From: Planctomycetota bacterium
Lineage (GTDB): Bacteria; Planctomycetota; GCA-002687715
Length of the DNA: 64,000 bases
Direction: 5' to 3'
Assembly: GCA_002687715.1 (NCBI GenBank)
Contig: NZBC01000036.1
Coordinates: forward strand, 4,322 to 68,321
The translations under genes were made by a program, and so were the position numbers. Within the stretch, counting starts at the first letter, position 1, and every line of letters begins with the position of its first letter. The notes under the pieces were generated by a model, which was given only the letters and a program-made list of their open reading frames with translations, made no database searches and was not told the origin of the DNA. Below, one piece after another: positions 14,537-61,254 of the stretch.

Positions 14537-15361
14537 ATGAAGGTCGTGATCTTCGCTGGCGGATGGGGAACGCGTCTCGGCCAGATCGCGGATCGGGTGC
14601 CCAAACCCATGGTTCCGATCGGTGGACAATCCATCCTGCGGCACATCATGAACGCCTACGCCTGGCACGGGTACAAGGACTTCGTCCTGTGCCTGGGCGT
14701 CAAGGGCGACGCGATCCGCGCGTACTTCGAGAACCTCCCGGCGTATAGCCGCGACTTCACGATCGACCTCGCGACGGGCCGCAAGACGCTCCACGGCGCG
14801 TCGGAGCCGGTCCTCGACTGGAACGTGACCCTTGCCGGGACCGGGCTCAATACACTCAAGGGCGGACGGCTCAAGAAGGTCGGACGCTACCTCGACAGCG
14901 AGCACCACTTCCTGACCTACGGCGACGGCCTCGCCGACGTCGACCTGCAGGCGCTGCTCGCGTTCCACAAACGCCACGGCAAGTTGCTCACCATCACCGG
15001 AGTACATCCTCCGTCACGCTACGGAGAGATGGAAGAGCGCCGGGGCCGGGTGACCGCGTTCGCCGAGAAGGCGAGCTCTAGCCAGTGGATCAACGGCGGC
15101 TACATGGTCTTCCGACGCGGCTTGCTCGACTGGCTGACGACGGACGACGGGTGCGACTTCGAGAACGGGGTCGTATCCGAACTCGCGGGCCACGGCGAGG
15201 TCGCAATGTACCGCCACGTCGGCCCATGGATCGGCATGGATCACGAGCAGGACGTCCACGAGCTGGAGCGGCTACTCGCCGACGGCAGAGCATTCTGGAA
15301 GCCGTGGGAACGCGTGAAAGAGACCGCCGCCGTCTCGGCAAGTGACGAGCGTGCGTTCTGA
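14537..15361 (+). CDS. rfbF: glucose-1-phosphate cytidylyltransferase
   Basis: MKVVIFAGGWGTRLG...PKPMVPIGG nucleotidyltransferase signature, size 274 aa, and overall similarity to RfbF/DdhA. Confidence 0.85.
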   Translation: MKVVIFAGGWGTRLGQIADRVPKPMVPIGGQSILRHIMNAYAWHGYKDFVLCLGVKGDAIRAYFENLPAYSRDFTIDLATGRKTLHGASEPVLDWNVTLAGTGLNTLKGGRLKKVGRYLDSEHHFLTYGDGLADVDLQALLAFHKRHGKLLTITGVHPPSRYGEMEERRGRVTAFAEKASSSQWINGGYMVFRRGLLDWLTTDDGCDFENGVVSELAGHGEVAMYRHVGPWIGMDHEQDVHELERLLADGRAFWKPWERVKETAAVSASDERAF

Positions 15362-15371
15362 AGGGGAGATC

Positions 15372-16397: not shown

Positions 16398-16948
16398 GAT
16401 TCGTAGGAACAGGACTCCAGGGCGCATGGATCATCGAGACGGAGTCGCACGAGGACACTCGTGGGTCGTTCGCTCGTACGTTCTGCGCGCGAGAATTCCG
16501 CGAGCGCAGACTCGAATCGCGGATGGTCCAATCCAGCATCTCGCGGAACCAGCTCCGGCACACCCTGCGTGGGCTGCACTGGCAGGCGGGCGCGGCTGGA
16601 GAAGCCAAGCTGATCCACTGCGTCCGAGGCGAGATCCTCGACGTTCTCGTCGACCTCCGGCGGGGGTCACCCACGTTTGGTCGCCACGAGAAGGTCGTCC
16701 TGTCGGAAGACAACCAGCGCATGGTGTACGTTCCGCGTGGGTTCGCGCACGGGTTCCTCACGCTGCGCGACGACACGTGGGTCTCCTATCAGATGACCAA
16801 TCACTACGCGCCGCAGAGCGCGCGCGGCCTGAAGTGGAACGACCCTCACCTCATCATCGCGTGGCCAGTCGACCAGCCGCGGGTGTCCGATCAGGACGCC
16901 AACTGGCCGGACTTCGAACCAGCAGCCATCACGGCCGAGATGCCATGA
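16394..16948 (+). CDS. NDP-4-keto-6-deoxyhexose 3,5-epimerase (RmlC-like cupin)
   Basis: 184 aa. Conserved RmlC-type motifs (ETRGSF, SRN.LRG.H, YVP.GFAHGF, Y...Y). Confidence 0.8.
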   Translation: MRFVGTGLQGAWIIETESHEDTRGSFARTFCAREFRERRLESRMVQSSISRNQLRHTLRGLHWQAGAAGEAKLIHCVRGEILDVLVDLRRGSPTFGRHEKVVLSEDNQRMVYVPRGFAHGFLTLRDDTWVSYQMTNHYAPQSARGLKWNDPHLIIAWPVDQPRVSDQDANWPDFEPAAITAEMP

Positions 16949-20586: not shown

Positions 20587-21549
20587 TCATGAAGCGTAGC
20601 CAGCGATCGTCTCGATGATCGCCAGGGTCTCCGCGAAGGTACGAAGTTGGGGCAAGACACTGGGGGACGTGGGCCGCTCCCGTAGTCCGTCGAACGCCTC
20701 CACCGTGCGCCAGACGCCCGGCTTCCAGTCGGTGTCCAGGCTGTCGGTAGGGGGGATCTCGGTCCACGCCACGGTGCCGGGTCGCATCACGAACAGACGC
20801 TCCATCGGCGCCAGACGATACCGACCCTGGCGCGTCCGCACCTCGATCGACCACCGTCCGGGAGCGATCCAACTCGACGACCAGGTCACCGGCACGGCAG
20901 TACAACGTCCGCTTCCCACGAAGGTCGCGCCTGCCGGATGCCAGGTCAACGCCCCCGGGTCGCCAACCGTCACATGGTCGGGTCGCAACGGTCCCAGCAG
21001 GTGCTCGACCGTGTCGATGACATGAATCGAGTTCGCGAGGGCCCACCGCTCCAGCACGTCCGCGCGGCGTCCACTGGTCGCGACGCGATCGGCCCATTCG
21101 GTGAAGTCGAACCTAGCGCACAGCGGCGCTTCGTCGTCCAGGATCGCACGGAGGGCAACCACCGATCCGAAGTACCGCCGGTTGGTCGCGATCCGTACGA
21201 GCGCGCCGACCTCCTCGGCCCGGTCCGCGAGCCCACGCAGCGCACCGGCGGACATCGCCCCGGGCTTCTCCAGCAGCATCTCGCGTGCACCGAGATCGAG
21301 CAGGCGGGTCGCCACCGGGTCGAGGCTCTCCGGCGTGGTGGCGACGATCGTCCAGGCGGACTCCGCGACCGTCCCGGCGTCGAGGTCTTCGAGCAGGACA
21401 TGGTCGACCGCGCCCGTCTCGTCCGCGAATACCGCGGTCCGGCCGGGGTCGCGTGCCACCACGCGGAAGGACGTTCCCCGCCCACGCAACACGCGTGCAT
21501 ACTCGCGGGCCATCGGCCCGGAACCGACGAGGAGGACGGAAGGCAGCAT
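20587..21549 (-). CDS. Gfo/Idh/MocA-family NAD(P)-dependent oxidoreductase (paralog)
   Basis: Start re-assigned to MLPSVLLVGSGPMAREYARVL (Rossmann). 320 aa. Tandem with the previous gene. Confidence 0.7.
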   Translation of the reverse strand: MLPSVLLVGSGPMAREYARVLRGRGTSFRVVARDPGRTAVFADETGAVDHVLLEDLDAGTVAESAWTIVATTPESLDPVATRLLDLGAREMLLEKPGAMSAGALRGLADRAEEVGALVRIATNRRYFGSVVALRAILDDEAPLCARFDFTEWADRVATSGRRADVLERWALANSIHVIDTVEHLLGPLRPDHVTVGDPGALTWHPAGATFVGSGRCTAVPVTWSSSWIAPGRWSIEVRTRQGRYRLAPMERLFVMRPGTVAWTEIPPTDSLDTDWKPGVWRTVEAFDGLRERPTSPSVLPQLRTFAETLAIIETIAGYAS

Positions 21550-21657
21550 GGATTCTCTTCGTGTTTCATCGGCCAAGAGCACCGTTCGAGGCACTGTCGC
21601 GAATATCGACGGCCGCGGGACGTGGCGGCACGGCGGGCGAGAGCATATCCTCGCGCG

Positions 21658-23964
21658 ATGCGCGTCTTCCTCCTCCTCTTCCTGCTCCCGCTTCCGACCG
21701 CCGGGGCCCAGACACCGCTGGCCAGGGATCTCGCCGCTGCGGCTGACCGCGCGATGGCCGCCGGACATGCGCCTGGGGTCGTCATCCGAGCGCAGCAACT
21801 CGACGGAGCGGTCGACGTCACGGTCGTACGGGGCGTGGCGGCCGAGGCCCCAGCCCGCGAAACGTGGAACGAAGGCTCGCTACCAGCTACCGGCCGCACG
21901 TTCGACCTGGCCTCGCTCACGAAGTGTGTCGCGACCGCGACCTGCGTGATGAAGCTCGTCGAAGAAGGTCGCTTGAAGCTGTCGGACCGCGCGGCGGATC
22001 ACCTGCCCGGGTTCGGGGTCAATGGCAAGGACGTCATCACCGTCGAACAGCTCCTGCGGCATCGCGGCGGCCTTCTGCCCGATAACCGGCTCGCCGACTA
22101 TCGCGACGGCGCGAGGCTGGCTCGCAAGCGCATCTACGCGCTCGGACTGCGAGCGGCACCGGGCACGCGGTACATCTACACCGACGTCGGCTTCATCGTG
22201 CTTGCCTGGATCGTAGAGAAGGTGACGGAGCAGCCGTTCGACGCCTACGCGAAGGCCGCGGTCTTCGCCCCGTGCGGCATGGCCCACACCGGGTTCCTGC
22301 GTGGCGGTGCGCCCAAGGCAGCGTGGTCAGCTCGTTCCATTCCGACCGAACCGGCGCGCGAGGGCGGAGCGCCGCTGCGGGGCGTGGTCCACGATCCGCG
22401 CGCCCGGCTGCTCGGCGGAGTCGCCGGTCACGCCGGCTTGTTCTCCACGATCGACGACCTCTCGCGCTACGCCCGCATGATCCTGCGCGGCGGCGTCGCC
22501 GACGACGGCACGCGCGTTCTCACGGCCGCGACCATCCGCCTCATGGGACGGTGCGGGCCCCTCCCCCGCCTGGAACGCCGGGGACTGGGCTTCGACCTGC
22601 GCCCGCTCGCGTTCACTCGCAAGGGCCCACGCGGACGTCACTTCCCGGACGGGACCTTCGGCCACACGGGGTTCACGGGCACGTCCATGTGGATGGACCC
22701 CGCGTCGAAGAGCTACGTGATCGTCCTGACCTCGCGTCTGCATCCCGACGGGCGCGGCGACGTCTCGCAACTCCGCTACGACGTCGGCACCGCGGTCGCG
22801 AAGGCCCTCGATCCACGCCCGTGGGCGCTGCGCCTCGGTCCCGCGCGCTCAGGGCTGCAGCGCATCGCCGACGGTGAGGTCTTGCCGGCGCTCACCGGCA
22901 AACGGATTGGCCTCATCACCAACCACACCGCTCGCGACCGCACGGGTGCATCGGCGATCGAGCGGCTGCACCCTCACGGACTCCGCGCGCTCTTCTCCCC
23001 GGAGCACGGCATCGCCGGCAAGTTCGACGCGCGCGTCGGCGACGCGGTCGATCCGCTGACCGGGCTGAAGATCCACAGCCTCTACCAGAAGGACCGCCGG
23101 CGGCCGTCGAAAGCGGCTCTGAAAGACCTCGACGTACTCGTGTTCGACATCCAGGACATCGGCACCCGGTTCTACACCTACGTCTCGACCATGGTGAACT
23201 GCATGGAGGAAGCGTCCCGAAACGGGTTGTCGTTCGTCGTACTCGACCGTCCCAATCCGATCGGCGTCGCCGTCGAGGGTCCGATCGCGAACGACGACGC
23301 CCTGGACTTCGTCGGTCGACTGCGGATTCCCATCCGCCACGGCATGACGGTCGGGGAACTCGCGCGCCTCGCGAAGCAGGACCTGAAGCTCGATCTCGAC
23401 CTCCAGGTCGTGGCCGTCAAGGACTGGTCACCCAATCAGTACCTCGACGATACCGGGCAACGCTGGGTCAACCCCTCCCCCAACATGCGCTCCATGGCGG
23501 CTGCGCTTCTCTACCCGGGTATCGGCATCCTCGAGACGACGAACCTCTCGGTCGGTCGCGGCACGAAGACTCCGTTCGAGCACGTTGGCGCTCCCTGGAT
23601 GAACGGCGAGGCGATCGCCAACGACCTCCGCGCCGCCGCCCTCGACGGCATCACCTTTTCCCCGGTGACCTTCACTCCCACCTCGAGCAAGTACCGCGGC
23701 AAGCGCTGCTCCGGAGTCCGCTTCGCCATCACCGATCGCACTGCACTGCGCCCGATTCGTGTCGGCCTGACCCTCGCCACCGCACTGCGGAAACACCACC
23801 CCGTCCAGTGGGACACCGCCCGCCTCGGACGCCTGCTCAAGCACCGCAAGACGCTCATCGCGATCCGGCGTGGCCGCGGAGTCACGGATATCGAGAAGAC
23901 GTGGACGTCCGAGGTCGCCGCGTTCCGGGAACGACGCAAGGCGGCTCTGATCTACGCTCGCTGA
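21658..23964 (+). CDS. fusion protein: beta-lactamase-fold serine hydrolase (AmiE/AmpH-like) + DUF1343 (NamZ-like exo-beta-N-acetylmuramidase)
   Basis: True start MRVFLLLFLLPLPTAGAQ (signal peptide) at 21658. N-terminal domain has SLTK (SxxK) and YxN-like motifs of class C/PBP4 beta-lactamase-fold enzymes. The C-terminal ~400 aa match DUF1343 (GKRIGLITNHTA ... DIQDIGTRFYTY ... NLSVGRGT). Confidence 0.75.
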   Translation: MRVFLLLFLLPLPTAGAQTPLARDLAAAADRAMAAGHAPGVVIRAQQLDGAVDVTVVRGVAAEAPARETWNEGSLPATGRTFDLASLTKCVATATCVMKLVEEGRLKLSDRAADHLPGFGVNGKDVITVEQLLRHRGGLLPDNRLADYRDGARLARKRIYALGLRAAPGTRYIYTDVGFIVLAWIVEKVTEQPFDAYAKAAVFAPCGMAHTGFLRGGAPKAAWSARSIPTEPAREGGAPLRGVVHDPRARLLGGVAGHAGLFSTIDDLSRYARMILRGGVADDGTRVLTAATIRLMGRCGPLPRLERRGLGFDLRPLAFTRKGPRGRHFPDGTFGHTGFTGTSMWMDPASKSYVIVLTSRLHPDGRGDVSQLRYDVGTAVAKALDPRPWALRLGPARSGLQRIADGEVLPALTGKRIGLITNHTARDRTGASAIERLHPHGLRALFSPEHGIAGKFDARVGDAVDPLTGLKIHSLYQKDRRRPSKAALKDLDVLVFDIQDIGTRFYTYVSTMVNCMEEASRNGLSFVVLDRPNPIGVAVEGPIANDDALDFVGRLRIPIRHGMTVGELARLAKQDLKLDLDLQVVAVKDWSPNQYLDDTGQRWVNPSPNMRSMAAALLYPGIGILETTNLSVGRGTKTPFEHVGAPWMNGEAIANDLRAAALDGITFSPVTFTPTSSKYRGKRCSGVRFAITDRTALRPIRVGLTLATALRKHHPVQWDTARLGRLLKHRKTLIAIRRGRGVTDIEKTWTSEVAAFRERRKAALIYAR

Positions 23965-38908: not shown

Positions 38909-39619
38909 TCACGGCCCCACAGTGCTGATCAGTGCGATGCGGCGTCCCCACGAATCCTGACGCCACGAGGTCTCGCCCCCCCCGGTGGGGCCGTATCCGA
39001 TGGGAATGAACCTCTCGATGGGTATATCGCCCGCGGATGAGAGGTATCTGATGACATTGTCGGCACGTTGCATGGCCAGATGCCACGCTGCTTCCGTACC
39101 GAGACCTTCCTTCCACGCGAAACCTTCCACGCGGATTCGGATATCGGAATACCCCGTGAGCCAGGGGGCCATCGTGTCGAGGACCGCCCGGTGCGCGGTG
39201 GTCAGCGTCGAGGACCCCGGTGAGAACACGAGCGGCGCACCGATCTCGTTGGTCCCGGGTTTCTCCAGCGTGTCCATGACCACCTCACGCAGCGCGTCGC
39301 GATTGGCGTCCGTGATGCGGCCCGATTCGTCGACGAGCAGCTTGGAATTGATGCTCTTCGCCGGGCGGAACAGAACACGATCGGCGCCGAGGTCCATCGG
39401 CTTCTGATCGCTCTTCAAGACGCCTGGGAGGCCGTGCGACATGAGCGCCTCGCGGAACGACGACACGCCGTCGCTGATGAAGCCGGCGCGACGTTCGTCC
39501 GCGAACGCCTCGAGCAGGATGAAGAAGCAGAGCAGGTTCGTCATCATGTCCGAGAAGGACAGCATGTATAGAGGTGCGCCCGGTTCGTCCGCTTCTTCGA
39601 CCTTCTTCTTTTCGCTCAC
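38909..39619 (-). CDS. motB: flagellar motor stator protein MotB (paralog 2, OmpA-like C-terminal domain)
   Basis: 236 aa. TM helix with conserved Asp (LYMLSFSDMMTNLLCFFILL). C-terminal OmpA/MotB peptidoglycan-binding region. Confidence 0.75.
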   Translation of the reverse strand: MSEKKKVEEADEPGAPLYMLSFSDMMTNLLCFFILLEAFADERRAGFISDGVSSFREALMSHGLPGVLKSDQKPMDLGADRVLFRPAKSINSKLLVDESGRITDANRDALREVVMDTLEKPGTNEIGAPLVFSPGSSTLTTAHRAVLDTMAPWLTGYSDIRIRVEGFAWKEGLGTEAAWHLAMQRADNVIRYLSSAGDIPIERFIPIGYGPTGGGETSWRQDSWGRRIALISTVGP

Positions 39620-40362
39620 AGGTGCCCCTTCCCGTCGGGGTCCCAGATGACCTGGATCTCGATACGACGGTTCTTGCGGCGGCCGATCTCCGTTTCGTTA
39701 TCCGCGATCGGCACGGCCGCGCCGAGACCCGCGGCGCCGATGCGCCACGGTTCCCACGCCGTCTCCCTACCCAAGAACTTCGCCATCTCGAAAGCGCTCT
39801 TGCGCGTAAGGGTCAGTGCGTCTTGCCCGGGGACGAGGTCCGAGGTCTTGCTGTCAGTGTGAGCCTCGATGACGATGCGGACCGGCTCGTCCTTGAAGAA
39901 CCGCGCCACCTCGAGCAGCACGTCACGACCCGTCGACTTCAGCCGGGTCCCTCCGGGCAGGAAGAAGTGGCGCCCGTCCATGCGAATGCGATAGCCGTCC
40001 GGCATCTTCGAGAAGTCGACCTTCCGGTCGAAGACCGACGGATCCTGGATCGCCGTCGACATCCTCTCCTCGAGTTCCTGCCGCTTGGGGTGGCTCTCGG
40101 CGCCCTTCAAGTCGGTCTTCACGTTGCTCGGGACGTTGAGCTTGAACGGGGACTGTTTGCTCTTCTTCTGCTTCGGCGTCATCACGCCGAGCGAGCCCGT
40201 CAGGGCGCCGGTCACGCGGCGGAGCTTGTCGACGTCCACCGCAGAAAACGCGAACAGGAGAATGAAGAACGTCACCAGCAGAGAGATGAGGTCACCGAAC
40301 GTGACCACCCACATCGGGGCGAGGAGCTCCTTGTCTGCCGGGGCTGATTTTCGATTCGCCAT
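39616..40362 (-). CDS. motB: flagellar motor stator protein MotB (paralog 1)
   Basis: 248 aa. MWVVTFGDLISLLVTFFILLF TM with the proton-channel Asp. OmpA-like C-terminus (RIVIEAHTDS...NRRIEIQV). Confidence 0.8.
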   Translation of the reverse strand: MANRKSAPADKELLAPMWVVTFGDLISLLVTFFILLFAFSAVDVDKLRRVTGALTGSLGVMTPKQKKSKQSPFKLNVPSNVKTDLKGAESHPKRQELEERMSTAIQDPSVFDRKVDFSKMPDGYRIRMDGRHFFLPGGTRLKSTGRDVLLEVARFFKDEPVRIVIEAHTDSKTSDLVPGQDALTLTRKSAFEMAKFLGRETAWEPWRIGAAGLGAAVPIADNETEIGRRKNRRIEIQVIWDPDGKGHL

Positions 40363-40388
40363 CGTCCTGCGGTCGGGTCACCCCGTCC

Positions 40389-41162
40389 CTACTTCTTCGC
40401 GTCTTCGAGCTCGGCGCGCTCATTGGGAGAGATGTAGCTCTTCAGCTTCTCCTTGATCATCTGCGGCTTGTCCCCCGCCTGGATCGAGGCGATCCCCTCG
40501 ATCATGATCTCCCGCATGAGTGTCTCTTCCTTTTGACGCGCCTCCAGCTTCACCGCGAGCGGGATGAAGATCATGTTCGCCATGACCGCGCCGTAGAACG
40601 TCGTGATGAGCGCGACCGCCATACCACCACCAATCTGGCTCGGGTCGTCGAGGTTCTTGAGCATGGCGATGAGACCCATGAGGGTCCCGATCATGCCGAA
40701 CGACGGGGCCATCGTGCCCATCTGGTCCACGATCTTCTTGCCACTCAGGTGGCGGCCCTGCATGCCGAACAACTCGATGCCCATGATGTCCCGCACGGTC
40801 TGGGCAGGGAATCCGTCGACCACGAGACGCACGCCCTTGATGAGGAACGGGTCCTCGAGCTCCTTGATCTTCTCCTCGAGGGCGAGCAGGCCTTCGCGGC
40901 GTGCGACGTACGCGAAGTCCGCCATGCGCTCGATCTCTGCCTGCGGCGTGGGCAGCGGGTAGAGCACGGTCTTCTTGATGACCTTCATGACCCCGAGGAC
41001 CTTGCCCAGCGGGAAGGCCATCAGGGTGGCGGCGAGGGTTCCGCCCATCACGATGGCCATGCTTGGCACGTCGATGAACGACCCGACCCCCGCGCCACTG
41101 GACATGGACCAGATGACGAGGCCGAAGCCCAGCACGATGCCGATTAGGGTTGCGACGTCCAT
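40389..41162 (-). CDS. motA: flagellar motor stator protein MotA
   Basis: 257 aa. Four TM segments and the conserved MotA/TolQ/ExbB C-terminal region (GTLMGLIAMLKNL...ALITTFYGAVMANMIFIP). Confidence 0.85.
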   Translation of the reverse strand: MDVATLIGIVLGFGLVIWSMSSGAGVGSFIDVPSMAIVMGGTLAATLMAFPLGKVLGVMKVIKKTVLYPLPTPQAEIERMADFAYVARREGLLALEEKIKELEDPFLIKGVRLVVDGFPAQTVRDIMGIELFGMQGRHLSGKKIVDQMGTMAPSFGMIGTLMGLIAMLKNLDDPSQIGGGMAVALITTFYGAVMANMIFIPLAVKLEARQKEETLMREIMIEGIASIQAGDKPQMIKEKLKSYISPNERAELEDAKK

Positions 41163-41210
41163 TCCCGGAATCTCCCTCTATGGGGATCTTCGGATCAACG
41201 GGGCCTCGCT

Positions 41211-46964: not shown

Positions 46965-47273
46965 TCAGACCTGAATCCGCATCACTTCCTGGTACGCATC
47001 GACGAGCTTGTTCCGGACTTCGAGCATCATCCGGAAGCTCACATCCGCCCGGTTCATCGCGATCATCACGTCATGCACATCGTCGATCTTGCCGGAGGCG
47101 AAATCGTCGAGCTTCTGGTGCGAAGCCTTGTGCATCTCGTCCGCTTGCTCGAGGAGACCCTCGAGCACCTTGCTGAAGCCCTCGCCGTCGCCCGACTTGT
47201 CCTGCTCTTGTGGCTGCAGCCGCGCCATGTCTTCCGCGATGCGCATCGCGTTCACGTCAATGGGCATGCTCAT
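46965..47273 (-). CDS. fliE: flagellar hook-basal body complex protein FliE
   Basis: 102 aa. C-terminal FliE signature (DVHDVMIAMNRADVSFRMMLEVRNKLVDAYQEVMRIQV). Confidence 0.8.
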   Translation of the reverse strand: MSMPIDVNAMRIAEDMARLQPQEQDKSGDGEGFSKVLEGLLEQADEMHKASHQKLDDFASGKIDDVHDVMIAMNRADVSFRMMLEVRNKLVDAYQEVMRIQV

Positions 47274-47276
47274 GGG

Positions 47277-47690
47277 TTACCTCGCGAGTTCCAGAGCCTG
47301 CTCGGCCATGCGGACCGACATCTGGGCTGCCTGCAGATTCGCCTCGTACGCCCGCGCCGCCGTCATGAGGTCCACCATCTCGAATGTCGGGTTGATGTTC
47401 GGCATCTTCACCATGCCACTGCTGTCAGCGTGGCGATGCCCGGGCTGGTACTTCTCGAGATGCGGCGTCTTGGTGTCGTCGACGATCTCGGCGACCCGCA
47501 CTCCCCCGCGCATCTCACCGTCGAGGACGGTCTCGAATACGGCGAGCTGACGTTTGTAGGGCGTGCCGTCGCCGCGGTTCGTATCGTGAGCGTGCGCGAG
47601 ATTCGTCGCGATCAGGCCCATGCGAACCCGCTCGGCAAGCAAGCCGCTGGCGCTGATCGACAGTCCGCGAAGTACGTTGTTGAGGTCCAT
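47277..47690 (-). CDS. flgC: flagellar basal-body rod protein FlgC
   Basis: 137 aa. N-terminal rod motif (ISASGLLAERVRMGLIATNLAHAHD) and C-terminal VDLMTAARAYEANLQAAQ. Confidence 0.85.
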   Translation of the reverse strand: MDLNNVLRGLSISASGLLAERVRMGLIATNLAHAHDTNRGDGTPYKRQLAVFETVLDGEMRGGVRVAEIVDDTKTPHLEKYQPGHRHADSSGMVKMPNINPTFEMVDLMTAARAYEANLQAAQMSVRMAEQALELAR

Positions 47691-47735
47691 CTCTCTCTCA
47701 ATCTGAGGCCGTGGTGAGCCTCGAGCTGACCATGA

Positions 47736-48055: not shown

Positions 48056-48059
<4 letters not shown>
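47736..48059 (-). CDS. flgB: flagellar basal-body rod protein FlgB
   Basis: Start re-assigned to MSPLGPQSSKILAALDFTSEQHRVIQRNLANLNTPGFKAK (ATG 48059-48057, ATGA overlap with the response-regulator stop). 107 aa. Confidence 0.8.
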
Positions 48060-49422
<1,363 letters not shown>

Positions 49423-49426
<4 letters not shown>

Positions 49427-50700
49427 GACGTTACTCCAGGCGAACGGATCGGTAGCACGACCGTCAACCGCGCGCCTCCAATCGGGGCGGTCTCAGCGAT
49501 GATGGAGCCGCCATGGAGCTCGACGAACTTGCGGGAGAGCGCGAGTCCCAGTCCGGTGCCTTCGGCCTTCGTGGTCGTGAACGGCCGGAAGAGGCGCCCG
49601 CGCAGGTCGGTCGGGATGCCCGGTCCATCATCGTCCACGGTGATGCGAAGACGGTTGCCCTCGCGACGTGCGCCGATCATCACTCGCCCGTCTTCTCCGG
49701 TCGCCTCCATGCCGTTGCGGACGAGGTTCCCCAGCGCCAGCTTCAGCTTGAGACGATCGCACTCGATCTCGGTCCCGCTGGTGTGGTCAACCACCTCCAC
49801 CGCGGCCCGCGGCATTCCCGTCGGCTCCTCGGCGGCGGCCGCGACCTCACCGAGCAGGGCGCTCACAGTCACGGGGTCCATCCGCGCGCGCTCGGGCCGT
49901 GCCCACAGCAGCAGGTTGGAGATGATCCCGTTGACCTCCGCCACACCCTTGCGAATGCGGTCGGCGTAGCGCAGCAGTTGTGACTTCGAGGCGGCCTCGA
50001 TGCCCTCGAGACTCTCCCCCTCACCCCGCAGGGCCTTGGCGAGCAGCCCCGCGAATCCCTCGACCCCGTTCATCGGGTTGCGAATCTCGTGCGCAACGCC
50101 CGCGGCCATCTCTCCGAGCTCGGCCAGCGTGTCGAGACGCGTGACCTGTGAGCGCAGATGCGCGACCTCGGTCTGATCCGACAGGATCTCGAGGCGTCCG
50201 CCATCAGGGAGGTCCGCGACGGACCCAGACAGAAAGCGCTCTGATCCGTCCAGGCAACAGACGAGCCGTTCCACGACGGTTCCCGACCGGACCTCGCTCC
50301 TCCCAAGCAGCAGGATCGAGGTACCGCGATGATCGAGCAGCGTGCGCGCGTCACGACCGCTGACCTCGTGCGACGGACGTCCGATGATCCGCTCGGCTGC
50401 AGGGTTCAGCCGCGTGATCGTGCCCTCTCCGTCACACGCCACGACCCCGCAGGGGATCGCGTCGAGGATGCCGTTCAGCTCCCCCGTGACGCTCTTGAGC
50501 TCTGAGACCTTGTTCAGCAGCCGTCCGTTGGCCGCGGACAAGCGACCATCCACGCCGGCGGCGCGGTCCTCGAGCCGCGAGTACGCGCGCTCGAGACTGC
50601 GGGTCACCTGGTTGAACACCCGGAAGCTCTCTTGGAGATTCGTCGCTTCGTTCACCGGCATTGTCGGGCCGACCTCTCGTTCTGGTGCCACGCCGTTCAT
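49423..50700 (-). CDS. PAS-domain sensor histidine kinase (FleS/FlgS-like)
   Basis: Start at ATG 50700-50698 (MNGVAPE), ATGA overlap with the upstream TPR gene. Alternative start MPVNE at 50661. PAS (ILDAIPCGVVACDGEGTI), HisKA H-box (AAGVAHEIRNPMN) and HATPase_c (GTGLGLALSRKFVELHGG). Confidence 0.85.
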
Positions 50701-51530
50701 GTGGTTCCCTTTCCCCCCGCGAGCAGCTTGCGGATGCGTTCTCTCTGCTTGCCGAGGTCGAGGCTCCACTTCGCCTGGTTGCCCCAGTGCCCCTGCGGGT
50801 CGTCGCCCTGGGTCGCGACGTAGAGTTCCTCGGCTTCCTTCCACCGCCCGAGCTTGTCGTGGCAGCGAGCCATGCGGAACGTGATTTCGGCTGTGCGCTC
50901 CTTCGCCAACACCCGCTGGAACGCCTTGAGCGCGCCCGCGTAGTCCTCGGCGAAATACAGCGCCTTCGCGAGCGCGACCTTGTCAACGGCATCAGCGATG
51001 CGTTCTTCAGACCCGACCCCCGACTTCGGCGGCTCGGGGACTTCGAGTGCCACGTCGAGCGCGGCGGCGCCGAAACGGGTCGGACGGCGCACCTTCGCGA
51101 TCTCTCCCCGAGAACGCTCGTTGGCGAGGCGAGTCCGACGCGCCCGGAGAAGGCGCTCCTTGGCCTGCAGCTCCGCGACCTGGGTTTCCTCCTGCTTCAA
51201 GGACGACTCGGAGGCGCCAGCGTCGAGCCGCTGTTTCAAGACCTCGGGCATGTCGACGATGATGCCGCGCTCCAGCGCCGACTGCAGATTCTCGAGGTGA
51301 CGGATCTCCTCTTCGGTCTCGGCAAGACGCGCCTCCATCACCTTGACCTTCGACTTGTCCGCGGACTTCAGCATGACGCCGATGTCCCCGAAGATCTCCT
51401 GCAACGTCGGAGGCGATTCCTGGTTGCCCCCCAACTCGTCCAGGATGTTCCAGATGGCGCCTCCGGGTCGCTGGGCAGGCGCGGTCGCCGCCAGGATTCC
51501 CGTCAGCATCATCATTGCCGCACGTCTCAT
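50697..51530 (-). CDS. secreted coiled-coil/TPR-like protein (candidate flagellar accessory protein)
   Basis: Start re-assigned to MRRAAMMMLTGILAATAPAQ (signal peptide, GGAGGAAG Shine-Dalgarno). 277 aa with a long coiled coil and a C-terminal TPR-like region. Embedded in the flagellar operon. Confidence 0.5.
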   Translation of the reverse strand: MRRAAMMMLTGILAATAPAQRPGGAIWNILDELGGNQESPPTLQEIFGDIGVMLKSADKSKVKVMEARLAETEEEIRHLENLQSALERGIIVDMPEVLKQRLDAGASESSLKQEETQVAELQAKERLLRARRTRLANERSRGEIAKVRRPTRFGAAALDVALEVPEPPKSGVGSEERIADAVDKVALAKALYFAEDYAGALKAFQRVLAKERTAEITFRMARCHDKLGRWKEAEELYVATQGDDPQGHWGNQAKWSLDLGKQRERIRKLLAGGKGTT

Positions 51531-54034: not shown

Positions 54035-55441
<1,407 letters not shown>

Positions 55442-55456
55442 GGAGACTTCCCGGAT

Positions 55457-55472
55457 TGGCACGACAGTGGCA
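55457..55472 (+). promoter_or_regulatory. candidate sigma54 promoter (TGGCAC-N5-TGGCA) upstream of fliC
   Basis: TGGCACgacagTgGCA has correct GG/GC spacing with one mismatch at -14. It lies ~290 nt upstream of the fliC ATG on the coding strand. No sigma28-like element was seen near fliC. Confidence 0.3.
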
Positions 55473-55759
55473 CGGGCCACGCTGTGCGATCTCTCTTCTC
55501 GAACTGGACGGTTCGGCGTCACGATGATGCCACCCCACGTATCGTCAAATCCGACAGCTGACTGAAAACAAATCACTCGTGCACCTTTGTCCCCTGTGGG
55601 CCGCCGCAACTTGGGACGTGGGCGCCTGTTTCCTCAGCACCCGGTGCATTTCGCCACCTTGATCTCAAGTTCGGCCCCAGTCGACCTACAAGACCTGTGA
55701 CGAGCGGCGAACCGTGGACGACGCACCGCGACCCTCGCAGGACGCTCCGGGAGGAACTC

Positions 55760-56590
55760 ATGGGACTCAGGGTAAACACCAACGTCTCCTCGCTGACTGC
55801 TCAGCGAAGCCTTGCACGGGCTACGGAAAACTTGAACCGCAACTTCCGCCACCTCAGCACCGGACTCCGGGTGGCCACGGCCGCCGACGACGCCGCCGGA
55901 CTCGCCATCTCGGAACGACTCCGGGCCAGGATCCGCTCGCTGGATCAGGCCGCTCGGAACGCCCAGGACGGCATCAGTCTCGTCCAGACGGCAGAGGGCG
56001 CACTCGAGCAGGTCAACTCGAACCTCATTCGGATGCGGGAGCTCTCGATCCAGGCGAGCAACGGCACGGTTTCGAACGCCGATCGGGATACTCTGGATGA
56101 GGAATTCCAGGCGCTGATCAACGAGGTCGGACGGATCTCCGGCCAGACGAACTTCAACACGATCCAGTTGCTCGACGGCTCGACGCCAACTCTGACGCTC
56201 CAAGTGGGCGCAGACACGTCGGTGGGTGTCGACACCCTGGCCGTGACACTCGTCGCCGTCACGACATCTGCTTTGACGCTCAGCACGTTGGGCATCGGCT
56301 CCGCCGGTAGCCCGTCACAGGCGATCGCCAACATCGACGCCGCCATCGACGCGGTGAGCACCGCTCGCGGTGGCCTGGGTGCCGTGCAGAACCGTCTCGA
56401 CGGCGTCATCTCAAACCTGCAAGTCTCTTCGGAGAACCTCGCAGCTGCGCAGTCCCGCATCCGGGACGTCGACGTGGCGTCGGAAAGTGCGATGCTCACG
56501 AAGAACACCATCCTCCAGCAGGCTGCGATCTCCGTACTCGCCCAGGCGAACGTACAACCGCAAGCCACGCTGTCCCTGCTGCAGGGTTAG
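55760..56590 (+). CDS. fliC: flagellin
   Basis: Start MGLRVNTNVSSLTAQR (GGGAGGAA Shine-Dalgarno). Conserved flagellin N-terminus and C-terminus (ILQQAAISVLAQANVQPQATLSLLQG). Short variable region (276 aa). Confidence 0.9.
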   Translation: MGLRVNTNVSSLTAQRSLARATENLNRNFRHLSTGLRVATAADDAAGLAISERLRARIRSLDQAARNAQDGISLVQTAEGALEQVNSNLIRMRELSIQASNGTVSNADRDTLDEEFQALINEVGRISGQTNFNTIQLLDGSTPTLTLQVGADTSVGVDTLAVTLVAVTTSALTLSTLGIGSAGSPSQAIANIDAAIDAVSTARGGLGAVQNRLDGVISNLQVSSENLAAAQSRIRDVDVASESAMLTKNTILQQAAISVLAQANVQPQATLSLLQG

Positions 56591-56783: not shown

Positions 56784-56806
56784 GTACAGGCAACGGAGAA
56801 CGCCCC

Positions 56807-58168
56807 ATGGAAATCGGCTCTCAAATCACCTTCAGCGGCCTGGCCACGGGACTGGATTCGCGAGCGATCATCGACGCACTGCTGCAAGTCGAGTCGATTC
56901 CGATCCTGCGCATGCAGAATCGGAAGTCGATGCTCAACACCCAGGACAGCGTCTTCTCGACGCTGGACTCCAGGCTTGATGATCTACGGAGCGCGGTCGA
57001 AGCCCTCGACTCGATCGGCGAGCTCGCCAGCTACACGGCGTCATCGTCAGACGAGGACGCGATCAGCGTGACCGCCAGCGGCACAGCGACCGAAGGGACC
57101 AACAGCGTCGACGTCGTCGGGCTGGCGGCGGCCGAGAGTCGCACGACCGGCGGGTACGCCAACGCGGACGCGCTGGACATCGGTACGGGATCGTTCACGA
57201 TCATGGTCGACGGTAACAACTACAACGTCGACCTGAACTCGAGCCCGAACAACACGCTGCAGGACGTCCGCGACGCGATCAACGCGTCGGGCGCCCCCGT
57301 CTCGGCGTCGATCATCGACACCGGTTCCGGCGCGGATCCGTTCCAGCTCGTCATCAACAGCACCGAGACCGGGGCGGAAAACGCATTCTCGGTCGACCTG
57401 ACCGGGTTCACGCCTGTCGAACCGGCGAAGTTCAACATCGACGACATAGCGTCGCGGCTCCAGACGGGGGTGGATGCCCACATCAGGGTCAACAACCTCG
57501 ACGTCTACCGCCCGACCAACACGATCAGCGACGTCATCGAGGGCGTCACGCTCGACATCAAGTCCGTGTCTGCAAGGACCCAGGTGACCGTCAACCGGGA
57601 CAACCAGGGCATCAAGGACAAGGTGCAGAGTTTCCTCGACGCATACAACGACATCGCGACGATCATGGACGCGCAGAATCAGGTCGACGAGGAGGGCTCG
57701 ACGGATGCCGTCCTCTTCGGTGACTCCGGACTGCGAAGCATCGCCTCGCGACTGCGCCAGGCCGTCAACCACAGCCCCGCGTCCCTGACCGGCAACTTCA
57801 CGAGCCTCGCGGCGATCGGCATCACGTCGGATTCGACCGGCAAGCTGAACCTCGACTCGTCCGATTTCGACGCCGCCCTCGCGAGTGACTTCCAGGGCGT
57901 CATGGATCTCTTCACCAGCACGACGGACGGCTCCGCCAAGGAGTTCAAGGCGGCCGTCGACGATCTGACCGACCCGGTCAACGGGATCATCAAGATCCGC
58001 AAGGACGGCATCTCGTCCCGCCAGAGCACCCTCGACGACCGGATCGAAGCGCTGACCAACCGCCTCGCCGACTACGAGGAACGCCTCATCCAACGCTTCG
58101 CGACTCTCGAGACCCAGGTCTCGTCCTTCCAGGCTCAGGGGTCCGCCCTCTCGAGCTTCCAGTTCTGA
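56807..58168 (+). CDS. fliD: flagellar filament capping protein FliD
   Basis: Start ATG 56807 (MEIGSQITFSGLATGLDSRAIIDALLQVESIPI). Track start is a GTG 63 nt upstream. FliD N-terminal and C-terminal coiled-coil domains. 453 aa. Confidence 0.8.
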   Translation: MEIGSQITFSGLATGLDSRAIIDALLQVESIPILRMQNRKSMLNTQDSVFSTLDSRLDDLRSAVEALDSIGELASYTASSSDEDAISVTASGTATEGTNSVDVVGLAAAESRTTGGYANADALDIGTGSFTIMVDGNNYNVDLNSSPNNTLQDVRDAINASGAPVSASIIDTGSGADPFQLVINSTETGAENAFSVDLTGFTPVEPAKFNIDDIASRLQTGVDAHIRVNNLDVYRPTNTISDVIEGVTLDIKSVSARTQVTVNRDNQGIKDKVQSFLDAYNDIATIMDAQNQVDEEGSTDAVLFGDSGLRSIASRLRQAVNHSPASLTGNFTSLAAIGITSDSTGKLNLDSSDFDAALASDFQGVMDLFTSTTDGSAKEFKAAVDDLTDPVNGIIKIRKDGISSRQSTLDDRIEALTNRLADYEERLIQRFATLETQVSSFQAQGSALSSFQF

Positions 58169-58241: not shown

Positions 58242-58625
58242 GTGACCACCGCCACGCAGATCAACGCCGCGCGCCAGTATCAGCGGCAAGCGATCATGAC
58301 GGCCTCGAAAGAGAAGCTCGTCGTCATGTTGTACGACGGCGCGCTCCGGTTCATGGACCGGGGGCTCCACGCGTTCGAGAGCGGCAATACGACGGCAATC
58401 GGCGAGGCTCTCAGCAAGGCGTTCGCCGTCGTCGGCGAGCTGCGGTCGACGATCGACCACGGGCGCGGCGGGACGATCGCTCTGGATCTGGAACGCCTCT
58501 ACGGCTTCATTCAGGACCGCATCGTCCAGGCGAACCGCGACCGCCAAACCGAACCGCTAGTCGCCGCTCGCGAAGTGATGGCCACGCTGAAGGAGGGCTG
58601 GGATGCCATCGTCCGCACCGCTTGA
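58242..58625 (+). CDS. fliS: flagellar export chaperone FliS
   Basis: GTG start after GGGAG. YQRQAIMTASKEKLVVMLYDGALRFM... matches the FliS four-helix bundle. 127 aa. Confidence 0.85.
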   Translation: MTTATQINAARQYQRQAIMTASKEKLVVMLYDGALRFMDRGLHAFESGNTTAIGEALSKAFAVVGELRSTIDHGRGGTIALDLERLYGFIQDRIVQANRDRQTEPLVAAREVMATLKEGWDAIVRTA

Positions 58626-58977
58626 GAACCCGCCGGCAGTGTGGGCGGGCCTCAATCGGCTTCGCGCTATCTCCCGCCTCGTCCTCGTCGCCATCGAACA
58701 AGAAGACCTCGAGCGGGTCGCCGAGCTGTCGAGGGAAAGCGAGACCATCATCGCGGCCCTGAAGAACCACTCCGGACCTTCGGCCGACGCCGAGTTCGTG
58801 CGGACTCTGCTCGACGAGATCGGGCAGGCGAATCGCAGGATCGTCGAAGAGCTGAAGGAGCGGATGTTCGACACTTCGCGTGAGCTCGCCCGGACCCGCG
58901 AGACCCGCTACCGCCTCCGCGCGGCCGGCATGCCGGGACCAGCGCCGACGAGCTCCATACTCGACCGCGAAGGTTGA
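58603..58977 (+). CDS. FliT-like small helical protein
   Basis: 124 aa. AAGGAGGG Shine-Dalgarno. Overlaps the fliS 3' end by 23 nt. Helical with an acidic centre. Sits in the fliD-fliS-fliT position. Confidence 0.4.
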   Translation: MPSSAPLENPPAVWAGLNRLRAISRLVLVAIEQEDLERVAELSRESETIIAALKNHSGPSADAEFVRTLLDEIGQANRRIVEELKERMFDTSRELARTRETRYRLRAAGMPGPAPTSSILDREG

Positions 58978-59112
58978 TGACCGCCTGGGCGGCACCCTGC
59001 GCCGCGGGCCGAGGAGTCCCACCCGAGCCGCGTCGGTCGAAACCAACGCCCGCGACGAGGTTTCTTTCGGGAAAGACCGCCCTCGGGCGCGTGTACCCAG
59101 AGTACTTCTCCG

Positions 59113-59120
59113 GCCGATAG
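59113..59120 (+). promoter_or_regulatory. candidate sigma28 (FliA) -10 element GCCGATAG
   Basis: 7/8 match to GCCGATAA, 14 nt upstream of the ATG of the rod-domain gene. The -35 TAAA is not convincing. Confidence 0.3.
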
Positions 59121-59133
59121 ATGAGCAGAAGGC

Positions 59134-59457
59134 ATGTCTCGCATGCCTATCTGGAGGACCCCGTTGATCCAAGCCTTGTACACCGCCGCCTCCGGCATCG
59201 CCCTCGGACGCAGACAGCTCGACGCCGCCGCGAACAACGTGGCCAACGCGTCGACACCGGGGTTCGAGCGATCAGAGGTCGTCGGCGTCGCGGACCCCGC
59301 AGGAGGCGTGACGCCGACCGTGGTGCCGGGGGTGGATGACGGAATCGCAGCCGACCTGGTCCAGACCATCCTCGCCAAGCACACGGTGAAAGCGAATGCG
59401 GCCATGTTCCGTCGCGCCAATGCCGTTGCCGGTGAGTTGATCGACCTGATCGGCTGA
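59134..59457 (+). CDS. minimal flagellar rod-family protein (FlgB-like, N- and C-terminal rod motifs only)
   Basis: 107 aa. N-terminal AASGIALGRRQLDAAANNVANASTPGFER and C-terminal DLVQTILAKHTVKANAAMFRRANAVAGELIDL match both conserved ends of Flg_bb_rod proteins. Confidence 0.55.
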   Translation: MSRMPIWRTPLIQALYTAASGIALGRRQLDAAANNVANASTPGFERSEVVGVADPAGGVTPTVVPGVDDGIAADLVQTILAKHTVKANAAMFRRANAVAGELIDLIG

Positions 59458-59515
59458 GATCGAAAGAGGGAAAGCGCGACGCCCATTGGCGTGTCGTGAT
59501 TGGGAAGGACCAGCC

Positions 59516-61132
59516 GTGGCGAAGAAGAAGAACCCGCGCATCAGCCTCTGTATGATCGTCAAGAACGAAGAGGCGCTCCTCCCGCGGTGCCTCGACGCCG
59601 CCAAGCCTTTCGTCGACGAGATCATCGTGGTCGACACGGGCTCCACCGATGCGACGATCGAGATCGCGCGCGGCTTTGGCGCGAAGGTCTCCGAGTACCC
59701 CTGGAACGACCACTTTGCCGAGGCGCGCAACGTCGCTCTCGAGCAAGCCACGGGCGACTGGATCCTCTCTCTGGACGCGGACGAGGTCCTCTCGGAGCTC
59801 GCGGGTCGCGACCTCAGAAAGGCCGCCAGGAAGTCCCAGTACATCGGCGCCTACATCCCCCTCCGCGACCGCGGCGACAGCGGGAAGGAGACGGTCTCGC
59901 TGATGTTCCGGGCCTGGCGGAACAAGCCCGAGATCCGCTGGCGCTATCGCCTTCACGAGCAGGTCCTGCCCGACGCCCTCCCATTCGTCCGCGACCACGG
60001 GATGCGCCTCGCGCAGCTCTCCGGCGAGATCTTCCACGACGGATATCGAGCCGAGATCATGGAGGCCAAGAACAAGGACGAGCGAAACGAACGTCTGTAC
60101 GACCTCCAACTGGCGGAATCACCCGACGACCTCTACGTCCTCTACAAGTACGCGGACTTTCTCCGCCAGGACGAGGACCGCCGCCACGAGGCGATGGAAC
60201 CGCTCCGGCGCGCCTACGACGCCATGCATCAGCTCGAAGACGGGCGCCGCAAGGAGTTCACGTTCACGGGTGAGATATGCGCGCTCCTCGCGCTAGATCT
60301 CCAACGCTCCGATCGCCCGGACGGCACACTCGAGATCACCCGCTTCGGCATCGACCACTGCCGCCATACCGCGCACCTGTGGTACGCCCACGCCAACTCG
60401 CTGTCATTCGAAGGCGAATGGGAAGAAGCCGAGTCGGCGTTCCGTGAGTGCATCGGCTACCACGGCCGCCCGATGCACATCCCGCCTCAAGCCCACATCA
60501 CGGGCGCTGCCGCCCGCAAGGGTCTCGTCCGCGCCCTCGCCCACCAGACCAGGAACGAGGACGCGAGCGAGGAAGCCTGGCGCATCGCCCAGGACTACCC
60601 CGACGACGCGGAAGCCCTGGCCCTCTTCGTCGACGTGAGTTGCATCGCCAAAGATCTGGCTGGCGTCACCAGGCGGCTCATCGAGCGGGTCCAGCAGCGC
60701 CCGCTCTGCGGCAACACCTGGTTCAAGGGCGGCGAGCTCTTCTTTCGCCTCCGACTGTTCGAGAAAGCGCTCCCCTGGATCATGCGCGCAGCCGAACTCC
60801 TCGAAGACCCCGGCCCCGCCAACGGCCTCCTCGGCGAGTGCCTTCTCGCCGCCGGCCACTACGAACCGGCCATCGACGCGTTCTCACGAGGCCTCCCCGA
60901 CGACCTCCGCTGTCGCGCGGGCATCCTCCTCATGTCCCTCGCCTACAACATCGAACTCGCGGAACCCCTGGACCCCGCCGACGAGAGCCTCCGCACCGAG
61001 GTCCGCCGCATGATCGGCAACCTCCGGGAGCTCGGGCACGACCGCCTGCAACATCGCCTTCACGAGGCAGCGCCGCAACTGGAAGAGACCGACCCCGTCG
61101 CCCACCGGTTCCTGGAGGCTGCGCTGGGCTAG
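59516..61132 (+). CDS. GT2-family glycosyltransferase fused to a C-terminal TPR-like domain (candidate flagellin glycosyltransferase)
   Basis: Preferred start GTG 59516 (MAKKKNPRISLCMIVKNEE) with GGGAAGGA Shine-Dalgarno. Track start is a TTG at 59486. GT-A signature (IVVDTGSTD, DAD..L). The C-terminal 300 aa are helical/TPR-like. Located directly downstream of fliC-fliD-fliS. Confidence 0.65.
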   Translation: MAKKKNPRISLCMIVKNEEALLPRCLDAAKPFVDEIIVVDTGSTDATIEIARGFGAKVSEYPWNDHFAEARNVALEQATGDWILSLDADEVLSELAGRDLRKAARKSQYIGAYIPLRDRGDSGKETVSLMFRAWRNKPEIRWRYRLHEQVLPDALPFVRDHGMRLAQLSGEIFHDGYRAEIMEAKNKDERNERLYDLQLAESPDDLYVLYKYADFLRQDEDRRHEAMEPLRRAYDAMHQLEDGRRKEFTFTGEICALLALDLQRSDRPDGTLEITRFGIDHCRHTAHLWYAHANSLSFEGEWEEAESAFRECIGYHGRPMHIPPQAHITGAAARKGLVRALAHQTRNEDASEEAWRIAQDYPDDAEALALFVDVSCIAKDLAGVTRRLIERVQQRPLCGNTWFKGGELFFRLRLFEKALPWIMRAAELLEDPGPANGLLGECLLAAGHYEPAIDAFSRGLPDDLRCRAGILLMSLAYNIELAEPLDPADESLRTEVRRMIGNLRELGHDRLQHRLHEAAPQLEETDPVAHRFLEAALG

Positions 61133-61160
61133 ATCGGCCGTAGGAAGACAGAGGAGAAAA

Positions 61161-61215
61161 GGAGAACCCAGGAACCCAAGAACCATGTTTCTGCTCCTGG
61201 GTTCCTGGGTTCTCC
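61161..61215. terminator. bidirectional terminator: perfect 18-bp inverted repeat GGAGAACCCAGGAACCCA ... TGGGTTCCTGGGTTCTCC
   Basis: Read directly. It sits between the convergent GT2-TPR (+) and pcnB (-) genes. The loop contains an extra AGAA/TTCT pairing. Confidence 0.6.
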
Positions 61216-61254
61216 TTAGCTCTCTGCTCCCCTGATCTCCGGCCACGCGGCCGC

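Follow-up and report, generated by a model that had tools for sequence, protein, structure and literature searches.

A probable flagellin glycosyltransferase of the GmaR kind and a minimal FlgC-like protein at the 3' end of a planctomycete flagellar filament operon

What do the last two genes of a planctomycete flagellar filament operon encode, and do they belong to one system? The question is raised by a stretch of 64,000 nucleotides (hereafter the window) on contig NZBC01000036.1, which comes from a Planctomycetota metagenome-assembled genome (G+C 66.7%). On its + strand, fliC, fliD, fliS and a FliT-like open reading frame (ORF) are followed by a 186-nt spacer, a small ORF and a gene for a 538-aa glycosyltransferase (GT). 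A preliminary description, made from the sequence alone, had proposed that the last two genes form a late flagellin-glycosylation module, with a "FlmG-type" enzyme, a minimal rod-family protein, a sigma28-like promoter and a nearby CDP-sugar cluster as a possible source of the sugar. Its account of the layout is correct, since the ORFs and the promoter-like motif sit where it placed them, and ORF positions together with Pfam matches support the gene order (Table 1). Overall we favour, with more confidence than doubt, the reading that this segment is the 3' end of the fliC-fliD-fliS-fliT filament operon and carries a GmaR-type flagellin glycosyltransferase and a minimal FlgC-like late protein. 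The parts of the preliminary proposal fared differently, as set out below.

The 538-aa protein is identical to the NCBI entry "hypothetical protein CMJ83_02925 [Planctomycetes bacterium]". It had been described as an N-terminal GT-A domain joined to a C-terminal tetratricopeptide repeat (TPR)-like domain, and this architecture is borne out by the Pfam match of the catalytic domain, by the predicted helices and by fold comparison. The AlphaFold2 (AF2) model (mean predicted local distance difference test score, pLDDT, 91) consists of an alpha/beta GT-A domain (residues 9-175) followed by 18 helices (179-537). In Foldseek searches with this model, SunS and ThuS were the top full-length matches (7msn, 7msp and 7msk, E 6e-16 to 1.2e-14), and below them came the TPR domain of OGT and consensus TPR proteins. 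TPR proteins were the only matches of the C-terminal 339 residues, in which Pfam recognises several TPRs, all weakly and under the gathering scores; this domain is presumed to be the substrate-binding module. The best NCBIfam match, TIGR04195 (E 5.7e-24), reaches 84.7 bits, far from its cut-off of 350.

Among proteins of solved structure, the closest relative of the catalytic domain is that of GmaR, a flagellin O-GlcNAc transferase shown experimentally to be such, whose N-terminal ∼180 residues transfer GlcNAc to flagellin (PMC9638930). The single sequence already finds the GmaR GT domain (22ao) with phmmer at E 1.5e-33, residues 6-195 aligning with GmaR 8-195, and a profile of 23 orthologues gives 22ao as the best solved relative at E 8e-50, with SunS and ThuS next at ∼1e-29. 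The motifs VDTGSxD and DxD are intact and aligned with the equivalent GmaR residues; D40, T41, G42, S43, D45, L86, A88, D89 and E90 are invariant in the 23 orthologues, and D87 is nearly so. No match of the C-terminal part to the TPR, linker or antirepressor chains of GmaR was obtained at E up to 1. The enzyme is thus a new member of the GmaR kind in which the antirepressor part is absent and the mechanism is ordinary. The label "FlmG-type" put it in the wrong family, as the domain order is reversed relative to FlmG and the catalytic fold is GT-A, not GT-B.

The genomic neighbourhood of the GT gene is conserved. Nine planctomycete loci could be viewed upstream of it (the window, L001, L002, L004, L089, L095, L096, L097 and the P0022 locus), and in all nine the gene immediately follows either fliT or the small gene; L090, the contig of one more orthologue, starts at the GT gene, so that the upstream side falls outside it. 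Orthologues with recovered context are 42-68% identical to the window protein, and six of the planctomycete loci contain fliC and/or fliD. The order fliC-fliD-fliS-fliT-GT, with no small gene, is found in L001 (50% identity) and the P0022 locus (42%), and the same order with the small gene inserted between fliT and GT in L002 (68%), L004 (64%) and L089 (47%). L096 (45%) reads fliC-fliD-fliT-like-small gene-GT, fliS not being called there, and the short contigs L095 and L097 show fliT, the small gene and the start of the GT gene. To look beyond this group, distant GT2-TPR relatives were collected by scanning one genome per species; the 80 that were kept (best identity 35%) served for linkage statistics only. 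By tblastn, 31 of them have fliC, fliD or fliS within 7 kb, in genomes of Planctomycetota, Solirubrobacterales and other actinobacteria, Bacillota, Desulfobacterota-like bacteria and Verrucomicrobiota. This is not the distribution, considered in the preliminary description, in which orthologues would sit mainly away from flagella. Because the enzyme is a homologue of GmaR and is linked to filament genes in every planctomycete locus that could be viewed, it is very probably a flagellin glycosyltransferase, as had been suggested.

We propose that it is a cytoplasmic protein glycosyltransferase, in which the inverting GT-A (GT2) domain would take a nucleotide sugar while the TPR superhelix would hold the protein substrate. 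The likeliest substrate is the 276-aa flagellin, the Ser/Thr residues of its central segment being modified before flagellar type III export; this stretch is indeed Ser/Thr-rich in the window flagellin (16 such residues across positions 126-175). Fold, homology, conserved catalytic motifs and gene linkage are observed, and from there we infer substrate, sugar and timing. A literature search returned no report of flagellin glycosylation in planctomycetes.

The small ORF is the less expected element of the locus. Its longest reading, of 107 aa (59134-59457), is a real ORF where the preliminary description had it, but the conserved core is only 97 aa, counted from TTG 59164, which follows GGAGGA at 59152-59157. 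Homologues begin at the position of this TTG, which is probably the start of the gene. The two upstream ATG codons, at 59134 (107-aa reading) and 59143 (104-aa reading, the start picked by gene callers elsewhere), are held in the arms of a palindrome that lies in a 26-nt insertion specific to the window, between the conserved box discussed below and the conserved start. The G+C content at third codon positions (GC3) of the frame is 0.80.

The characterisation as a minimal rod-family protein proved accurate. The protein matches the Pfam family Flg_bb_rod (PF00460) with 36.2 bits, above the gathering score of 20.7; hhalign aligns it end to end with the FlgC encoded in the window, which has two extra insertions; and in Foldseek searches its best match is the Salmonella proximal rod (7cg0, chains of ∼128 aa) with query TM-scores of 0.78-0.87. 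The AF2 model (pLDDT 92.9) shows a helix (2-27), a beta hairpin (37-55) and a second helix (61-96). Rod motifs had been described at both ends. The N-terminal one is recognised by Pfam, but the C-terminal one, Flg_bbr_C, has no match in the window sequence and is detected at the family level, 15 of 41 relatives matching it. Compared with the PDB, a profile of the family aligns with both ends of FlgG, FlgE and FlgC (40 N-terminal and 36 C-terminal residues), in FlgC as one stretch. The protein is also, as claimed, smaller than canonical rod proteins (PDB chains of FlgB, FlgC, FlgF and FlgG have 138, 134, 251 and 260 aa), and it stays far under all curated FlgB/C/F/G cut-offs (35 bits at best versus 59 to 470). 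By sequence and model it appears to be a cut-down FlgC, reduced to the two terminal helices and one beta hairpin. The gene follows fliT and is not encoded with the early rod genes flgB-flgC-fliE. Since a canonical flgC adjoins fliE elsewhere in the window, the small protein is an extra paralogue and not the rod protein itself. FlgM, FliE and FlaG were considered as identities and rejected, given the rod motifs and rod-protein fold and a fliE elsewhere in the window.

This paralogue belongs to a large family. An exhaustive HMMER search with the small protein gave 297 representatives at E up to 1e-3, and most of the 150 best matches are 97-110 aa long and align end to end; with a profile search the number grew to 725 clusters or more (E up to 1e-8), nearly all of 99 aa. 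The few members with organism names come from Rhodoferax, Rubrivivax and Albitalea and are annotated just as "flagellar basal body (rod) protein". None of the curated NCBIfam models claims the family, Pfam covers only its two terminal motifs, and a literature search found no paper on it, so that as far as we found it is annotated yet apparently unstudied. A scan of metagenome contigs with the small protein picked up only ordinary rod or hook genes, through their N-terminal motif. The members outside planctomycetes are lone genes with no flagellar or glycosylation genes around them: in Rubrivivax the neighbours are radical-SAM/YcaO genes, a second genome has the gene between dnaG and ctaB, and in a third it is surrounded by unrelated genes. 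Two of these lone 99-aa genes, in unrelated betaproteobacterial loci (L003 ∼7905-7925 and L005 ∼7900-7915), have GGCGTGACATC in common ∼75-95 nt upstream, perhaps a shared site of regulation.

In planctomycetes, the small gene lies between fliT and the GT gene in seven loci (the window, L002, L004, L089, L095, L096 and L097), 11-117 nt upstream of the latter. The frame is intact in all seven, with in-frame indels only, ten columns are invariant and the C-terminal helix is strongly conserved throughout the planctomycete copies. Five copies, of 84 aa (L002 4598-4852, L096 2725-2979, L097 649-903, P0130 and P0227), have an in-frame deletion of 13 aa; in four of the five, the first beta strand is gone together with the end of the rod motif, TPGF.

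The small gene was said to stand behind a sigma28 (FliA) -10 box. The octamer GCCGATAG does match this consensus as described (Table 1), but taken alone it is a chance-level match: allowing up to one mismatch, GCCGATAA has 30 occurrences in the window where 30.9 are expected, none of them exact. It gains weight because the box is conserved in other loci. [GA]CCGATA[AG] lies 17-43 nt upstream of the small-gene start in six of the seven loci (the window, L002, L004, L089, L095 and L096), the seventh, L097, having GCCGAAAG at the equivalent place, and in L089, L095, L096 and L097 the flanks are unalignable with those of the other loci. Elsewhere, CCGATA[AG] was counted at 7 sites in 152 kb on both strands, from which we calculate a chance of ∼1e-3 per locus for a 40-nt window. 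The box is absent from L001, which has no small gene, and goes with the small gene and not with the GT; lone proteobacterial small genes have no CCGATA/sigma28 box upstream. Upstream of fliC, the promoter-like motif TCAAGT-N14-CCTACAAG is shared by the window, L002 (723) and L004 (3358), with variants in L001 and L089, and in the more distant planctomycete L009 (12486, - strand) TCAAGT-N14-TCCGATAA precedes fliD, with CCGATAA as -10 and TCAAGT as -35. The fliC motif and that of L009 fliD suggest a clade-specific sigma28-type consensus. On this comparison of sequences, an internal sigma28-type promoter has, in our judgement, slightly better than even prospects; in the favoured reading the box would most likely act as an internal -10 element, giving late expression of the small gene with read-through into the GT gene. 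The claim of a sigma28 promoter and late expression finds support in the -10 core, CCGATA being conserved in six of seven loci, but no -35 element is recognisable.

The small protein itself would be a 97-aa FlgC-like member of the axial family, with terminal helices as in the inner core of rod and hook subunits, and most likely a late-expressed flagellar export substrate docking on axial structures through these core helices. Several observations weigh against the favoured reading. A -35 element (TAAA or TCAAGT, 13-15 nt upstream of the box) is absent from all seven loci, the box would leave a leader of ∼10-14 nt in most of them, and there is no fliA among the annotated ORFs of the window. Three of the loci (the window, L002 and L004) have the box in DNA that may derive from the 3' end of a different gene, and common ancestry could then account for some of its conservation. 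Two orthologous fliT-GT loci, L001 and the P0022 locus, do without the small gene, and some of its orthologues show a degenerate or partly deleted N-terminal motif, which speaks against an ordinary structural part in the rod. As to the enzyme, the GT2-TPR family is very large (>3351 matches) and of the 80 distant relatives, 49 have no filament genes nearby, so that the linkage is not universal.

Do the two genes form one glycosylation module, as the preliminary description had it? We found no support for this beyond adjacency: the small gene is absent from two fliT-GT loci and its relatives stand alone. The sugar cluster, by comparison, exists as described, with C- and O-methyltransferases among its genes. 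The products include a CmcI-type O-methyltransferase, a C-methyltransferase, an epimerase/dehydratase-family enzyme, an RmlC-like 3,5-epimerase and a glucose-1-phosphate cytidylyltransferase-like enzyme (248 bits against a cut-off of 300), and this gene content fits a C- and O-methylated deoxyhexose. No GT was present among the scanned ORFs of the cluster, the stretch beside it at 9.9-11.4 kb not being annotated. The cluster is 43 kb from the GT gene, with the entire early flagellar cluster between the two, along with peptidases, a sulfatase and a NamZ/beta-lactamase fusion, and that it supplies the sugar is a guess.

How else could the locus be read? Fairly unlikely in our estimate, the ∼99-aa proteins would form a distinct, unrecognised class of the axial family, made of core helices only and not part of the rod, of which the planctomycete copy would have come under a late (sigma28-type) promoter beside the GT gene. 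Its work would then fall in the filament stage, whether it is exported as a cap-like or terminating subunit or remains in the cytoplasm, imitating the terminal helices of flagellin and partnering the GT or the chaperones. The last idea can be taken further, to a mimic of axial helices that stays in the cytoplasm and works with the GT or the chaperones as an adaptor, specificity factor or competitor tuning flagellin glycosylation or export. The small gene is immediately upstream of the GT gene in every planctomycete locus that has it, in some orthologues its N-terminal assembly motif decays or is deleted while the C-terminal helix stays conserved, and a precedent exists in GlfM, a small helical factor in a ternary complex with a flagellin glycosyltransferase and flagellin. 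Yet orthologous GTs do without the small protein, the GT has a TPR module of its own and the relatives outside planctomycetes have no GT nearby, and we regard such a cytoplasmic partner as unlikely. That the small ORF is nothing but a decaying relic without function, with GCCGATAG a chance match or the leftover of an older gene, is most improbable: although the 7/8 match occurs at chance frequency, the spacer resembles a decayed gene, two loci have lost the small gene and some copies bear the 13-aa deletion, the frame remains open in seven loci with its invariant columns and conserved C-terminal helix, the GC3 is high, the AF2 model is confident and the box is kept in six of seven loci despite unalignable flanks.

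Other alternatives concern the GT. It could act on another protein or on a cell-envelope polymer and be merely placed at the end of the operon, given how numerous GT2-TPR proteins are, how many distant relatives lie apart from filament genes, and the JGI label "glycosyltransferase involved in cell wall biosynthesis" that several relatives carry. This we find quite unlikely, as the position after fliT is kept down to 42% identity, the closest characterised homologue is a flagellin glycosyltransferase, and the modelled GT-A-then-TPR architecture has its nearest folds in SunS and ThuS, which glycosylate peptides. A bifunctional enzyme is very unlikely, in which the C-terminal helical half would also bind a regulator of transcription or translation of flagellar genes in the way that GmaR pairs flagellin glycosylation with anti-repression (PMC9638930). 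The C-terminal 339 aa do exceed a minimal substrate-binding TPR module, and some of the helices are without a recognisable TPR signature, but similarity to the GmaR TPR, linker and antirepressor chains was not detected, the protein is shorter than GmaR and no MogR-like gene occurs among the annotated ORFs of the window. We therefore retain the reading of a GmaR-type flagellin glycosyltransferase beside a late FlgC-like protein.

Table 1. Features of the window discussed in the text.
Feature	Position	Strand	Remarks
Nucleotide-sugar cluster	11449-16948		O- and C-methyltransferases, cytidylyltransferase-like, epimerase/dehydratase, RmlC-like
fliE	46965-47276	-	Neighbour of canonical flgC
flgC, canonical	47277-47735	-	11 kb from the small gene
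TCAAGT-N14-CCTACAAG	55665-55692	+	Promoter-like motif upstream of fliC, conserved
fliC	55760-56590	+	276-aa flagellin, D0/D1 domains only; Pfam Flagellin_N E 7e-42, Flagellin_C E 9e-25
fliD	56804-58168	+	Filament cap; Pfam FliD_N and FliD_C
fliS	58242-58625	+	Flagellin export chaperone; Pfam FliS E 5e-33; TIGR00208 above cut-off
fliT-like gene	58603-58977	+	Chaperone; 23-nt overlap with fliS; Pfam FliT E 1.9e-5, below gathering score
Spacer	58978-59112	+	Maybe decayed 3' end of the 173-aa membrane-protein gene of L002
GCCGATAG	59113-59120	+	7/8 positions of the sigma28 (FliA) -10 consensus GCCGATAA
Palindrome AGGCATG-tctcg-CATGCCT	59128-59150	+	Alignment of seven upstream regions, RNA fold
Small FlgC-like protein gene	59164-59457	+	97-aa core; open frame back to ATG 59134 (107 aa)
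538-aa glycosyltransferase gene	59516-61132	+	GTG start
GT-A (GT2) catalytic domain	59516-60115	+	Pfam Glycos_transf_2 E 4.7e-21
DxD motif D87-A88-D89	59774-59782	+	Within the GT-A domain
C-terminal TPR-type domain	60116-61132	+	All-helical, about 338 aa plus stop codon
Hairpin, 20-bp	61159-61217		Between converging GT and poly(A) polymerase genes; RNA fold

The remaining features of the operon and its surroundings are as follows. The fliD ORF opens at GTG 56744, and its conserved N-terminus starts at ATG 56804. The FliT family (PF05400) was found in the FliT-like orthologues of L001, L002 and L097. In L002, fliT and the small gene are separated by a 173-aa gene (4059-4580) whose product has a membrane helix predicted at its N-terminus, and both the window (58978-59112) and L004 (6829-6975) hold weakly similar 3' fragments of it. 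Similarity of the spacer to L002 and L004 is weak at the peptide and DNA levels (EVSFG, GTGCAG; tblastn E 0.09-0.3), and the spacer is possibly a remnant of this decayed gene. The spacer RNA (58978-59170) has no significant structure (z -0.48), neither the terminator scan nor RNA folding placed a terminator in the interval from fliT to the small gene, and no promoter emerged from a sigma70 scan. Downstream of the GT gene, the region 61133-61254 folds into a hairpin with a minimum free energy of -64.8 kcal/mol (z -6.07, none of 200 shuffles being as stable). The terminator scan, which also reported a terminator-like site after the GT gene, was otherwise at chance level in the window; the hairpin likely terminates transcription from both sides and closes the filament operon.

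The early flagellar genes form a complete cluster upstream on the - strand, with fliL, two motB, motA, fliI, fliH, fliG, fliF, fliE and flgC as well as genes for a histidine kinase and two sigma54-dependent response regulators. The motB genes (38909-39697 and 39616-40377) are tandem paralogues that both combine a MotB plug with an OmpA domain, and adjoin the single motA (40389-41177) and fliL. The two sigma54-dependent response regulators and the PAS histidine kinase are encoded at 48056-50982 and 54035-55633 (- strand); one regulator/kinase pair adjoins flgC-fliE and one sigma54-dependent regulator is divergent from fliC, an arrangement reminiscent of the FlrA/FlrBC or FleQ/FleSR hierarchy in polar flagellates. 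Further away, a 1092-aa ORF (20686-23964) fuses a beta-lactamase-family domain to the N- and C-terminal domains of the exo-beta-N-acetylmuramidase NamZ.

The locus bears on two families. The catalytic module of GmaR is widespread and repeatedly linked to filament genes across several phyla, and GmaR-type GT-A/TPR enzymes therefore appear as a third broad class of flagellin glycosyltransferases, beside the Maf and FlmG types. The small protein draws attention to a large, unstudied family of minimal FlgC-like proteins, common in relatives of Rhodoferax and Rubrivivax and here encoded behind a conserved sigma28-like box. The planctomycete arrangement, with its fixed position and conserved upstream box, offers a handle on the role of such proteins.

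How do the two proteins compare with known systems? Like GmaR of Listeria monocytogenes, the GT has a homologous N-terminal GT2/GT-A domain, a GT-then-TPR order and a gene among flagellar genes, and its partner flagellin is short (276 aa) as is that of Listeria. GmaR's central TPR domain has been proposed to recognise flagellin, and anti-repression, directed at MogR, proceeds through C-terminal helical domains (PMC9638930). The GT is 99 residues shorter than GmaR (538 versus 637), has no detectable similarity to its TPR, linker and antirepressor domains, and is encoded near sigma54-type flagellar regulators, in a planctomycete of Gram-negative type. The Bacillus glycocin S-glycosyltransferases SunS and ThuS likewise combine a GT-A domain with a helical TPR-like domain that holds the peptide substrate. 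The window enzyme differs from them in being far below the TIGR04195 cut-off, in its flagellar context, in a longer helical domain and in having no glycocin precursor or export genes nearby. FlmG, the flagellin pseudaminyl transferase of Caulobacter, also joins a flagellin-binding TPR domain to a catalytic module and acts on flagellin in the cytoplasm. However, its TPR domain is N-terminal and its C-terminal domain GT-B-like (PMC7591256), it uses nonulosonic acid donors and there is no homology between the two. Because of the opposite domain order and the GT-B-like fold, FlmG is an analogue and not a relative.

Like FlgC and FlgB, the small protein has a Flg_bb_rod motif, a C-terminal heptad helix, whose rod motif shows at the family level, and a helix-hairpin-helix fold. 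It is shorter than FlgC (97 versus about 134-150 aa), from which it differs by the two missing insertions, and its gene stands after fliT behind a sigma28-like box and not in a flgBC-fliE operon. GlfM, which forms a ternary complex with flagellin and the adjacently encoded flagellin glycosyltransferase Maf-2 (bioRxiv 10.1101/2023.12.03.569772), is likewise a small helical protein encoded beside such an enzyme. The resemblance is positional only, GlfM being a non-homologous four-helix bundle without rod motifs that partners a Maf-type enzyme lacking a TPR domain. The small protein also has counterparts in the 99-aa "flagellar basal body proteins" of Burkholderiales (Rhodoferax, Rubrivivax, Albitalea), which are equal in length and homologous end to end with 31-48% identity. 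Unlike these lone genes, which have no CCGATA box, the planctomycete branch is fixed between fliT and the glycosyltransferase gene.

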